A stretch of DNA of 64,000 bases from Octopus vulgaris (taxonomy: Eukaryota): NCBI GenBank assembly GCA_951406725.2, contig OX597823.1, positions 74,214,001 to 74,278,000 of the forward strand, written 5' to 3'. This document shows, one piece after another, positions 15,767-58,654 of this stretch. The position numbers and the translations under genes were made by a program. The notes beneath the pieces are model-generated. The model was not told the origin of the DNA. It did no database searches and saw nothing but the letters and a program-made list of their open reading frames with translations. Each line of letters starts with the position of its first letter. Position 1 is the first letter of the stretch.

Positions 15767-16430
15767 AATACACACATACACACACGTATTTATGTATATA
15801 TATATATATATATAGGTGCATGCGTATACACATACACACATATGAGGAAGAAAGAGGGAACAGAAAGTAAATTACGTAGTTTGATGACCTATATTCTCAC
15901 ATTCAGAATAAGATGTTCAGCTACAAAATTGCTTTGGATATAATCGTTTGATCTGTGAGAAATAACGACCAAATTGCCTGCAAACCACAACCTATCCACT
16001 TAAGAATAAAAGAACATATTCATTCATTCTAAAAGTGTATAATATAGTCCTATGTTTGATTGTGCAGATAAAATTATTACAGCTGGATCGCCTTTGATTA
16101 TACATGTGCTTAATAGTGTTGCCCGGAGGCTACACAACACTAACAACTACAATGATCACTTTAATGGTATAAGATACCAAATACTAAAGACATTATTTAC
16201 TGAGTTTCTAGTGCTAGATATCTTACATGATAATTTATAAATTATATGGGGGATTATATATTTTTGTATATTTAAAATGATCACATGTTAACTTTAGATC
16301 TATGATAAAAAGTGTGCCAGCCCTGAATGTTTCTCCGTGGTGTTCAGTCATTGAGTGGTTATTGCCGCGCTTGAATCATGGCTTATTTTAGGAGGAGGTA
16401 AAGTATAATTTGAAGAAGGATTACTTGCTA

Positions 16431-16760
16431 TACATTATCTATATTATTTAGATTCGACGGATATTTGTCCTCATTGGGCATATAGCATAGTGATTAAGAG
16501 CGCGGGCTACTAACCCCAAGATTCTGAGTTCGATTCCAAGCAGTAAACTGAACAATAACAATAATAATAATAATACAATCGAAAATTACCTTAGGAATGA
16601 GACCCCCAGGTTCAAAATTTCCCCAAGACACCCGAAGAAGCCTGGAGAGTATATCAGCCGAAACGTTGTGTTAACAACAAACAAGATGAGGACAAATATC
16701 CGTCGAATGTAAATAATTTAAATAATGTACATAATTCGTCATCTCTTAAATATAGAACTG
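16431..16760 (+). mobile_element. Non-autonomous Penelope-type element with tRNA-like head and hammerhead motif
   Basis: TSD ATTACTTG(C/T)TA at 16420-16430 and 16761-16771. Inverted repeat 16431-16474 vs 16686-16729 plus a ~31-nt extra 3' tail. A/B boxes at ~16483 and ~16526. Hammerhead motif at 16628-16671. Confidence 0.8.
16628..16671 (+). ncRNA. Minimal type I hammerhead ribozyme motif (core mutated, CCGAAGA)
   Basis: ACAC-CCGAAGA-a-gcctg..cagcc-GAAA-CGTT-GTGT: stem I ACAC/GTGT, stem II, palindromic AACGTT. Confidence 0.7.
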
Positions 16761-17146
16761 ATTACTTGTTATGTTTTGCTGATCAAGTTATCACATAAAG
16801 GTTCCCTCGTTAAGTGGATGTTCAAAGTGTAGCAAAAAAATAAAAAATCCCATAAGTTTTTGTACTGCATCCTGACACTAGTGAAGTTGAGTAGCAGGAG
16901 GTGGCAACAAGAATTTTCAGATGGTTAATGTTTTGCCATTTAATTTTTCAGTTATCACCGTGGTTTGGACAGCTACACGCAATGCGTTTGCTCTTGAAAG
17001 TTTTTTCAAGAAAGATGAACCTGACCGTCTATTGCGCTACATCTATAAATTCTACACACACACACATACACACACACACACATACATATACTATTTAGAT
17101 ATATATATATATATATATAGTATATACATATATATATATGTGTATA

Positions 17147-55392: not shown

Positions 55393-57228
55393 TCAGCCAT
55401 TTAATTTGGGGGAGAACTTAGCTATGAAATGTTTTTCCATATTCCTCCTGAAGGGGGTGTCATTCTTCGGACACTTGTAGAAGGGAAATATCTTAAATTT
55501 TCCTTCTCCACATGTAGCTAGGTGTGTGCTTAGTGGTATTTTGCGTAGTTCTTCCTGCCGAATATGTTGTCGGTGGATCCTGGCTCGCTGGCACAAAGAA
55601 TTACCAGTTTCTCCTACGTAATTCTCCTTGCATGTGGGGCAGGTTATGCAGTATATGACGTTCTGCGTCTTGCAGTTCATATCTGCATTTACTTTGAATA
55701 TGACACCATTTTTAAATCTTATCTCTCTGTTGCTCTCTATGTATTTGTAGGTGGGGTTGCTGCAGGTCCCACATCTACCATCTCCGCACTCTTTTGCAAA
55801 GAATTCCGTTTTAGTTTCTGAAGAGAATTTCGCTCTTGTTAGGTGTTTTTTTAGGTTTTTGTCCTGTCGTCTACTGTTTTTTATGCTATATTTGTTTAAT
55901 ATGTTTTTCATTTTGGGGCTCTGTAAGGCTATTGGTAGGTTTGAATGTATGGTTTGGAAGATGTTGGTAACTCCAGGGTTGTGTGTGTTTATAAAAGGGA
56001 TAGTGTTTTCTTTGTTTTTTGTTTTGGGTGTCCTGAGTTGTGTGATGTCTAGTTTTAATGCTCTTGTGATTCCATTTTCTATTAGTTTAAGGGGGTATTT
56101 TTGCTCTAGGAGGAAGCTTTTGAGTTCATCTAGTCTTATTAATCGTATTTGTGAATCAGTTACTATGCTACATATTCGTCGTGCCATACTATATGGGATG
56201 TTTCTTTTTGTGTGGGATGGGTGGCAGGAGTGGAAATTTAAGTATTGATGTGTGTCAGTTTTTTTGTAGTGGATGTCTGTTGTGACGATGGAGTTGTGTA
56301 TTTTGATGTTGATGTCTAGGAAGGGAAGTTCGTTGTGGCTGGTATCTATTGTGAAATTGATAGATGGGTGCAGCGTATTGAGGATGTTGTGGAATGTTTG
56401 TAGGTCCTCTTCTGATCTGTTCCAAAAGATGAAACAGTCATCGAGGTAGCGTTTCCACTTTTTCTTGATGTCTTCTCTGAAGTCGTGTTCGAAAACTTTC
56501 CCTATTTCGTCATATAGTTTTTTCTCCAGGAAGCCCATCACTAGGTTGGCATATGAAGGTGCGAATTTTGTACCCATAGCCGTGCCTTTTATCTGTCGGT
56601 ATGTCTTGTTGTTGAATGAGAATGTGTTTTCTTCTAGTATTAGTTGGGTGGCTTGGGTGATAAAGTTTGTCTTGAAGCGTTCATCTATAAGTTCTCTGTA
56701 TTTTTCTATTGATTGTTTTATAGCTTCTAGACCTAGGGTGTGTGGTATGTTTGTGTATAGATTTGTGACATCAAAGCTTGCAAGTATGGTGTTTTTCGGG
56801 ACTGTATTTGGAATGTGTGTGAGGAAGTCTATGTCATCCCTTATGTAGCTTGGAATCTGTGGGCATAGAGGTTTGAGGAGTATATCTATGAAGTGGCTTA
56901 GTTGTTGTGTTGGTGCCTGGGGTCCTGCCACTATTGGTCTCATCGTGAGGTCTGCAGGTCTTTGTACTCTTATGTAGTGGTTCCTCTGTTCCTTTATGGC
57001 TCTCTGTATTTCCGAGCTTTTATGAATTTTAGGTAATCCATAAAAGTTGCTTTCTTTGGTTTGTGAGTTGCATAGATAATCTTCCTCCTTATCTGTAAAG
57101 GAGTCCTGATATTCATTGACTAAAGTTCTAATTTTTCTTATTGTTGTTTTCTCCGGTGGTGTTGGTTCCTCTTTGTAATATGTCTGGTTGTTCAGTAACT
57201 CTAGTATCTTTTCTTTGTAGTAATCTGT
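55393..57228 (-). CDS. Penelope-type RT plus GIY-YIG endonuclease (N-terminally truncated; frame open upstream of Met 56943)
   Basis: FYGLPKIHK, RPIV, SFDVTNLYTNIP, QIKGTAMG, RYLDD, LPFLD, HSCHP, CxxxxCxxC linker, VIYCITCPTCKENYVGETG, R..HRQH, E..FI..F.PKLN. Confidence 0.96.
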   Translation of the reverse strand, partial: TDYYKEKILELLNNQTYYKEEPTPPEKTTIRKIRTLVNEYQDSFTDKEEDYLCNSQTKESNFYGLPKIHKSSEIQRAIKEQRNHYIRVQRPADLTMRPIVAGPQAPTQQLSHFIDILLKPLCPQIPSYIRDDIDFLTHIPNTVPKNTILASFDVTNLYTNIPHTLGLEAIKQSIEKYRELIDERFKTNFITQATQLILEENTFSFNNKTYRQIKGTAMGTKFAPSYANLVMGFLEKKLYDEIGKVFEHDFREDIKKKWKRYLDDCFIFWNRSEEDLQTFHNILNTLHPSINFTIDTSHNELPFLDINIKIHNSIVTTDIHYKKTDTHQYLNFHSCHPSHTKRNIPYSMARRICSIVTDSQIRLIRLDELKSFLLEQKYPLKLIENGITRALKLDITQLRTPKTKNKENTIPFINTHNPGVTNIFQTIHSNLPIALQSPKMKNILNKYSIKNSRRQDKNLKKHLTRAKFSSETKTEFFAKECGDGRCGTCSNPTYKYIESNREIRFKNGVIFKVNADMNCKTQNVIYCITCPTCKENYVGETGNSLCQRARIHRQHIRQEELRKIPLSTHLATCGEGKFKIFPFYKCPKNDTPFRRNMEKHFIAKFSPKLNG

Positions 57229-58570: not shown

Positions 58571-58625
58571 CAGTTCTACAATTAAGAGATGAGGAATTAT
58601 GTACATTATTTACATTATTTACATT
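58571..58625 (-). mobile_element. Isolated 3' tail of the 16431-16760 element family
   Basis: Reverse complement matches 16707-16760 (TGTAAATAAT..GTACATAATTC.TCATCTCTTAA..TAGAACTG). Confidence 0.85.
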
Positions 58626-58654
58626 GGAGCATATGTATATATTGCTGAGCTATG

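Follow-up and report, generated by a model that had tools for sequence, protein, structure and literature searches.

The insert described here occupies positions 16420-16771 of the window, the 64,000-nucleotide stretch of Octopus vulgaris DNA (contig OX597823.1) that was analysed. It is flanked by a target-site duplication (TSD), with a left copy beginning ATT at 16420..16430 and a right copy at 16761..16771, both on the plus strand; these are identical at 10 of 11 positions, and the duplication stretches to 13 nt at 92% identity. Inside the left TSD is a tail-less inverted arm of 44 nt (16431..16474, minus strand), which is a 93% copy of 16686-16729 and represents a second short cDNA of the same element as the insert. 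The main arm, on the plus strand, begins at about +1 of a tRNA-derived head (16476..16548, +1 to +73, assigned by alignment to host tRNA-Arg(ACG)), in which the A box (16483..16493) carries three changes relative to the family state and the B box lies at 16526..16537. A variable-length (AAT/AAC)n tract (about 16551..16578) separates the head from the 5' end of a Penelope-like element (PLE) ORF (16597..16760, plus strand, ATG at 16597), recognized by its translation and by its match to the homologue P0005. In this copy one extra base near the beginning breaks the frame, which is open afterwards through the end of the tail. Within the ORF is a minimal type I hammerhead (16627..16672, plus strand), consisting of helix I, the core plus an extra A, helix II, GAAAC and GUU, and the main arm ends in a 31-nt PLE tail (16730..16760), identified by genomic matches to the family form and lying between two classes of 3' end. 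The original prediction had described the TSD, the 44-nt inverted copy, the ~31-nt tail, the A and B boxes, the (AAT)n tract and the minimal hammerhead, and all are found in place. The second tail fragment that it had noted is also present as a 58-nt 3' fragment of the same family at 58571..58628 (minus strand, 91% identical to the insert copy).

The family and its coding hammerhead

The family is indeed dispersed. In the 2.8-Gb host genome there are 3054 exact matches to the tail in its family form, compared with none for a reversed control; with 11 of 63 independently found tails being exact, this gives a rough figure of ~17,000 tail-bearing copies. Copies have a median identity of 90% to the family majority state, and the window copy is 92% identical to it. 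The 3' ends fall into two classes, at +240..+259 and at +280..+283, and in 48 of 54 copies with inverted structure the tail-less arms stop at +239..+259. Direct repeats of at least 8 nt flank 32 of these 54 copies, compared with 44 of 2862 mismatched control pairs, and the TSDs are therefore more than chance. Two insertions 1.1 Mb apart on C1 (L098 and L100) have 300 nt of common flank at 97% identity, reflecting duplication either of the segment itself or in the assembly.

The PLE ORF opens with the codons that form the hammerhead and the 31-nt tail. A consensus core of CTGANGA had been anticipated, and CTGATGA (70) and CTGAAGA (26) are the two commonest cores in a set of 217 matches to a loose pattern, some of them in unrelated sequence. 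The hammerhead core (window 16632-16638) is coding as well, and the family is divided into two subfamilies in which its free base results in either Asp or Glu, a difference that is associated with another site, at +64 of the head; P0005 retains the same peptide across the hammerhead core. The hammerhead of the window copy is degraded, with the core CCGAAGA, one helix II mismatch and a predicted energy of -5.9 kcal/mol, and that of another copy (L026) is predicted to fold at -13 kcal/mol as a 5-bp helix I plus a 6-bp helix II. Rfam called no hammerhead. The motif resembles the minimal type I hammerheads of metazoan PLE pseudo-LTRs, in which helix I is short, a base is left unpaired 5' of helix II and a real helix III is lacking, and which occur mainly as dispersed singles or as opposed pairs from truncated PLEs; relative to these, helix II is 5-6 bp here (PMC4209133, as far as its accessible text extends).

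An autonomous element that carries the head

Among the first 30 loci, three have an endonuclease (EN) ORF ending directly upstream of the head. A search with the EN peptide produced 3524 candidates, 150 of which were scored, and in all 30 of the loci taken from it (including the query locus itself) the head lies beyond the stop codon and on the same strand as the ORF, typically at a distance of ~30 nt. The same arrangement is present in 13 of 14 longer loci, which partly overlap the 30, and in 11 of 12 loci found with the foreign homologue P0005, again in partly overlapping sets. The order of the unit is thus an ORF encoding a reverse transcriptase (RT) and then a GIY-YIG domain, the stop codon, ~30 nt of spacer, the tRNA head, (AAT)n, the ATG with the hammerhead, the tail and the remaining ORF, with the head upstream of the next ATG. 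One locus (L165) preserves a complete 2.4-kb unit, with the repeat, an ORF with RT and GIY-YIG motifs, the stop, and then the head, AAT tract and hammerhead, although the 2.4-kb ORF is broken in that copy. The ORF begins at the ATG just before the hammerhead and reads through the tail, and in L165 and L132 the frame continues into the RT. All 285 nt of the repeat, including the head, are collinear with the terminal repeat of this autonomous element, the kind of element sharing the 3' sequence that had been sought as a check on the original prediction.

The coding assignment is supported by several lines of sequence comparison. A profile search matched RVT_1 (E 2.9e-08), the window translation matches the N-terminus of the full-length P0005 at 20 of 51 positions (E 9e-05), and 381 homologues have the same layout of RT followed by GIY-YIG. 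Pfam gave no match with the EN fragments, its GIY-YIG model gave none, and a PDB search gave at most weak, generic RT matches; the C-terminal EN motif, VYSIPCSCG..YKGET..R..EH..H, was identified by direct reading. The family has the characters of EN+ PLEs, namely a single ORF in which RT precedes a GIY-YIG domain with CCHH-type cysteines, partial tandem or inverted pseudo-LTRs with 5' truncation, a tail of 30-40 nt at a single end (seen as the two classes of 3' end), and a minimal hammerhead motif in the pseudo-LTR, as judged by sequence and predicted fold. A zinc-finger linker between RT and EN marks Neptune and Nematis (a criterion taken from the accessible portion of PMC8557442). No CX2-5CxxC cluster was seen on reading the linker of this family, and membership in the Penelope/Poseidon clade is therefore likely. 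A sister PLE family lacking the head was sought among 150 matches at 49-58% identity, and the 12 loci checked all belong to the same head-bearing family.

The closest described system is Poseidon_Ac (PAc) of Anolis, a member of the Penelope/Poseidon clade with an RT and, at the C-terminus, a GIY-YIG domain (PMC11167929, accessible portion, for this and the following comparisons). The PAc protein nicks AT-rich DNA, RT starts at two internal sites flanking the tail, and hammerhead cleavage is not required for insertion. The PAc ORF, like the present one, begins inside the hammerhead region, with the tail comprising the first codons between the two RT start sites, and the ATT or AT-rich target and tandem pseudo-LTR layout are also common to both. 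In contrast, neither a tRNA-derived segment nor a fixed hotspot of 5' ends is described for PAc in that text. Given the collinearity of the repeat with the autonomous unit and this PAc-like layout, the insert at 16420-16771 is interpreted, with a probability of about 0.9, as a solo pseudo-LTR with a short inverted second arm and a TSD, a 5'-truncated copy of this PLE. Insertion by Penelope machinery, as originally proposed, is borne out.

The original prediction further held that the insert is a Penelope-mobilised, tRNA-headed ribozyme SINE, that is, an independent non-autonomous lineage whose own copies spread via PLE enzymes. Its Penelope component, tRNA head and family hammerhead core all stand, and the linkage of head to hammerhead or tail is not chance nesting, since 72 of 90 head-anchored copies retain one or the other within 600 nt downstream; the other 18 break off into unrelated sequence with no common body. 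The separate SINE does not survive. The head is part of the autonomous element, with which the full 285 nt are collinear; none of 153 variants tested is specific to solo copies; both subfamilies are found with and without the ORF; non-CpG divergence is similar in solo and ORF-linked copies (3.8% and 4.5%); and sampling of ~0.97 Mb of loci turned up no free SINE bearing this head. The sole strong differences between the two sets are small deletions at +5..+9, which occur in the ORF-linked copies. Given the lack of solo-only variants, the shared subfamilies and the lack of a free SINE, a separate SINE lineage is unsupported. It remains true that head-bearing arms are mostly without an upstream ORF (165 solo and 62 ORF-linked, in samples not designed for that ratio) and that solo copies with intact boxes are transcribable in principle, but the view of an independent SINE is now largely refuted and very doubtful.

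Other known classes were also considered. The tRNA-derived head with A and B boxes is a SINE2 character, but a SINE2 assignment as a distinct non-autonomous lineage is opposed by the collinearity with the autonomous repeat and the lack of solo-only variants, as is a SINE2 with a LINE-supplied 3' end, the 3' part being PLE ORF sequence. Animal non-LTR retrozymes are similar in being short hammerhead units that are related to the pseudo-LTRs of PLEs and believed to employ their enzymes, but they form head-to-tail tandem arrays (accessible parts of bioRxiv 10.64898/2026.07.22.740005 and PMC7761336), whereas copies of the present family are solo or head-to-head. This assignment was rejected, as the 90 tail-anchored loci contain solo or inverted copies, few direct partial repeats and no arrays. 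The Schistosoma repeats Sm-alpha and Sj-alpha are likewise tRNA-related, SINE-like, hammerhead-bearing and of high copy number, but are described as separate SINE-like elements with canonical hammerheads (PMC2770079, accessible portion), whereas here the head lies within the repeat of an autonomous element and the hammerhead is coding.

The tRNA-derived head

The autonomous PLE itself bears the head, a 73-nt segment derived from tRNA-Arg(ACG) that is exactly tRNA length and in which both the A and B boxes are intact in the family. The family majority head aligns end to end with host tRNA-Arg(ACG) at 50 of 74 positions (z 8-9, 1000 shuffles), with an alignment score of 65-70 compared with 42.5 for the best shuffle; for the window copy 44-46 positions are identical (z 5-6). 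Ten other host tRNAs, which do not make up the full set and were scored against one copy, gave lower scores, with 37-48 positions identical. Two anticodon-stem pairs are altered on both sides relative to tRNA-Arg(ACG), and the acceptor and T stems are broken. ARAGORN found no tRNA in the window or in 30 loci, nor was one called by Rfam, so the case for a tRNA origin depends on the direct alignment with tRNA genes of the host. The silence of these two programs might be taken to mean that the likeness is accidental, but with a full-length, collinear match that shuffles fall well short of, this explanation is hardly credible.

The A and B boxes fit the Pol III promoter consensus. Per-site variation among copies is 3.7% in the boxes and 3.8% in the remaining head, and box conservation equal to the head average is expected of dead copies and is therefore uninformative. 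Upstream of the head, the spacer at -19..-3 imperfectly mirrors the head's initial 17 bases and has the same shape as present-day fold-back junctions, which may indicate that the tRNA copy was captured by a fold-back-type event.

Several observations concern tRNA genes and the AAT tract more generally. At G000:C2:211887733-211907121, more than 20 genes of the tRNA-Arg(ACG) type lie in tandem on a single strand, and a tRNA-Cys cluster at L205 includes one copy with an ACT anticodon. The AAT tract behind the head is often much expanded or broken by other elements; LINE-like coding fragments, presumably of Dong/R4 type, lie just behind it in three loci (L258, L260 and L262), and a common tRNA SINE lies within it in L176.

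A PLE with a tRNA-derived segment in its repeat was not found in the literature searched, with Repbase, Dfam, SINEBase and subscription papers outside the scope of the search. The accessible portions of PMC8557442, PMC4209133, PMC7761336, PMC13282606 and its supplement, PMC8969392 and PMC6685494 contain no such element; the word tRNA is absent from the main text of PMC4209133, and tRNA, Pol III and promoter are all absent as terms from the accessible text of bioRxiv 10.64898/2026.07.22.740005. A parallel is provided by the TRIMp3 elements Helenus, Ajax and Cassandra, whose terminal repeat likewise contains a Pol III promoter derived from a small RNA, with an origin by SINE insertion proposed (PMC10886601, accessible portion). 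TRIMp3 elements are non-autonomous and of the LTR class, and their autonomous partners are argued to be bound to Pol II and to be without the repeat (same portion of PMC10886601), whereas the PLE described here is autonomous and itself bears the repeat. The element is a Poseidon-type PLE, itself a known kind, that bears a tRNA-derived promoter-like module and would shed SINE-like solo repeats.

A hotspot of 5' ends and its possible origin

The 5' ends of copies are concentrated at the start of the head. Tail-anchored copies were sampled as the first 90 of 3054 matches, including one pair that is a segmental duplicate, and 18 of the 90 were excluded because long AAT tracts made them untraceable. 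Resolved copies extending past +20 number 38, of which 30 have their end at -20..+20 and eight enter the ORF. The hazard at the head start is 0.038 per nt, compared with 0.0024 in the repeat and 0.0018 in the ORF, or about 15-20 times background (binomial P about 1e-21). In the head-anchored sample (the first 90 of 651 matches), 14 copies read through, 19 fold back, 54 end at -8..+9 (seven of the 90 at +1), three end at -20..-25 and none at -9..-19, with about three of the ends appearing by eye to be read-through copies with small deletions. The gap at -9..-19 is not significant alone (P 0.53). The edge of the hotspot is at -7/-8, and fold-back junctions are found at that point. A separate, minor cluster of 5' ends is present in the family ORF at approximately -552 to -566 from the head, where four of 19 copies at risk end within 30 nt, with a fifth just inside.

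Pol III tRNA precursors start ~7 nt before +1 of the tRNA. The explanation preferred here, which we consider to have an even chance of being correct, is that the head is a Pol III-type promoter and that run-off of RT at the 5' end of the RNA sets the ends of most copies. The RNA would start at about -7 of the head, and RT primed at the tail, ~285 nt downstream, would run off its 5' end. The freed cDNA end would be self-complementary and could either snap back or anneal to a second cDNA primed on the other strand, resulting in inverted arms inside one TSD. Copies reaching into the ORF would stem from the downstream repeat of a read-through RNA, and the element would shed SINE-like solo repeats from its own promoter without any separate SINE lineage. 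Run-off is favoured because the hotspot coincides with a tRNA-type promoter, its edge is sharp, the hairpin is weak and there is no stop at comparable folds. The inner head hairpin is predicted at -2.1 kcal/mol, and ends are found in only one of 25 copies at an RNA hairpin at -372 and in none of 19 at a palindrome at -517, folds that are equally or more stable. The promoter of Penelope has been located in its pseudo-LTR (PMC2377424, accessible portion).

Several points count against run-off, namely the lack of an RNA start in RNA-seq, the sharing of the edge with a palindrome, the deletions in read-through copies, the loss of pairing in the acceptor and T stems and the exclusion of the 18 untraceable copies from the 38. 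Two standard RNA-seq runs, from a species that is possibly other than that of the window and sampled at ~6% each, gave 10,414 and 6,950 reads aligned to the family, with mates spread evenly across both strands. Of these reads, 63-66% continue into dissimilar sequence, as transcripts reading through embedded copies would be expected to do, and no discrete RNA start, or position with many starts, was seen in either run. The main loose end in the RNA is the fold-back joint at -7 (393 and 309 reads, 58 contigs). No head-tail circular joint is among the joints listed, from a library type unsuited to circular RNA.

The main alternative, possible though not favoured, treats the tRNA segment as a passenger. 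It would be an old retrocopy of a tRNA or a simple SINE, trapped in the spacer, and as RT copied a continuous transcript made by Pol II, the cDNA would snap back on the small palindrome around +1, whose imperfect extension spans -19..+17. The prominence of the fold-back at -7 among loose RNA ends is consistent with this, as is the genome-wide tally of exact junctions, in which fold-backs (459) are as common as native junctions (452). The hotspot has its -7 edge in common with the perfect palindrome, which ranks first in strength among the five short hairpins tested, and the extended hairpin is predicted at -6.7 kcal/mol as DNA. Deletions of at least 4 nt across the palindrome are found in 13 of 53 read-through copies, compared with six events in the remaining head (a comparison biased by locus selection), which suggests an obstacle on a continuous template, and at a weaker palindrome at +125 ends are in mild excess and one or more fold-backs occur. 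However, the comparable folds elsewhere in the unit produce no hotspot, shuffled sequences fold as well as the head stretch (z 0.24), and so abundant an element would pay a high price for the loss of ~80% of its cDNAs immediately before the ORF. Both boxes are also kept despite 32% divergence from the tRNA, although this retention may date from an earlier SINE stage, which counts against run-off. If the snap-back explanation holds, this Poseidon family would be an ordinary one that captured a tRNA and has an instructive hotspot of truncation.

An RNase P-like cut of the tRNA-like fold at or near +1 could also split tandem transcripts, with RT then running off the cut end or jumping imprecisely to the upstream piece. 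The small deletions of read-through copies centre on +1, where the seven head-anchored ends noted above also lie. A cut at +1 would, however, remove -7..-1, which many ends and all fold-backs contain, and the acceptor stem is unpaired, making this an improbable explanation.

A stronger form of the promoter hypothesis, that Pol III transcribes the whole 2.5-kb protein-coding unit from the captured tRNA-Arg promoter and that SINE-like solo repeats are shed in their thousands when RT is primed at the 5'-proximal tail site, is unlikely; if correct, the element would be a SINE built into its own partner. Pol III read-through of the unit would need an absence of T4 runs. The family-state unit contains none on its sense strand, compared with 2.3-2.7 expected, but this is not significant (P 0.06-0.08; 0.09-0.25 in single copies), and a control LINE ORF also contains none (1.7 expected), while the family of the second PLE in the window has four (3.8 expected). 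A P value pooled over copies is not valid here, since the copies lack independence. The lack of T4 runs was thus rejected as evidence for Pol III.

The regeneration of pseudo-LTRs and the driver of PLE transcription are both described as open questions in the accessible portion of PMC2377424, and both become testable in a family whose copies share a 5' end, sharp to the base, at a tRNA-type promoter. Such a family would also show how an autonomous PLE could give rise to hammerhead repeats of the SINE-like or Sm-alpha-like kind with no separate step of fusion. In practical terms, repeat pipelines could misfile the ~17,000 copies as tRNA SINEs.

Finally, a second, unrelated PLE is present in the window at 55393-57216 (minus strand), with 607 open codons that encode RT and GIY-YIG domains joined by a cysteine-rich linker, and it appears Neptune-like by the linker criterion of PMC8557442 (accessible portion). 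No tRNA-like head is evident by eye after its stop codon. Its 3' 321 bases are 100% identical in 40 of 40 scored copies (741 candidates), and this second PLE is therefore very young and probably active.
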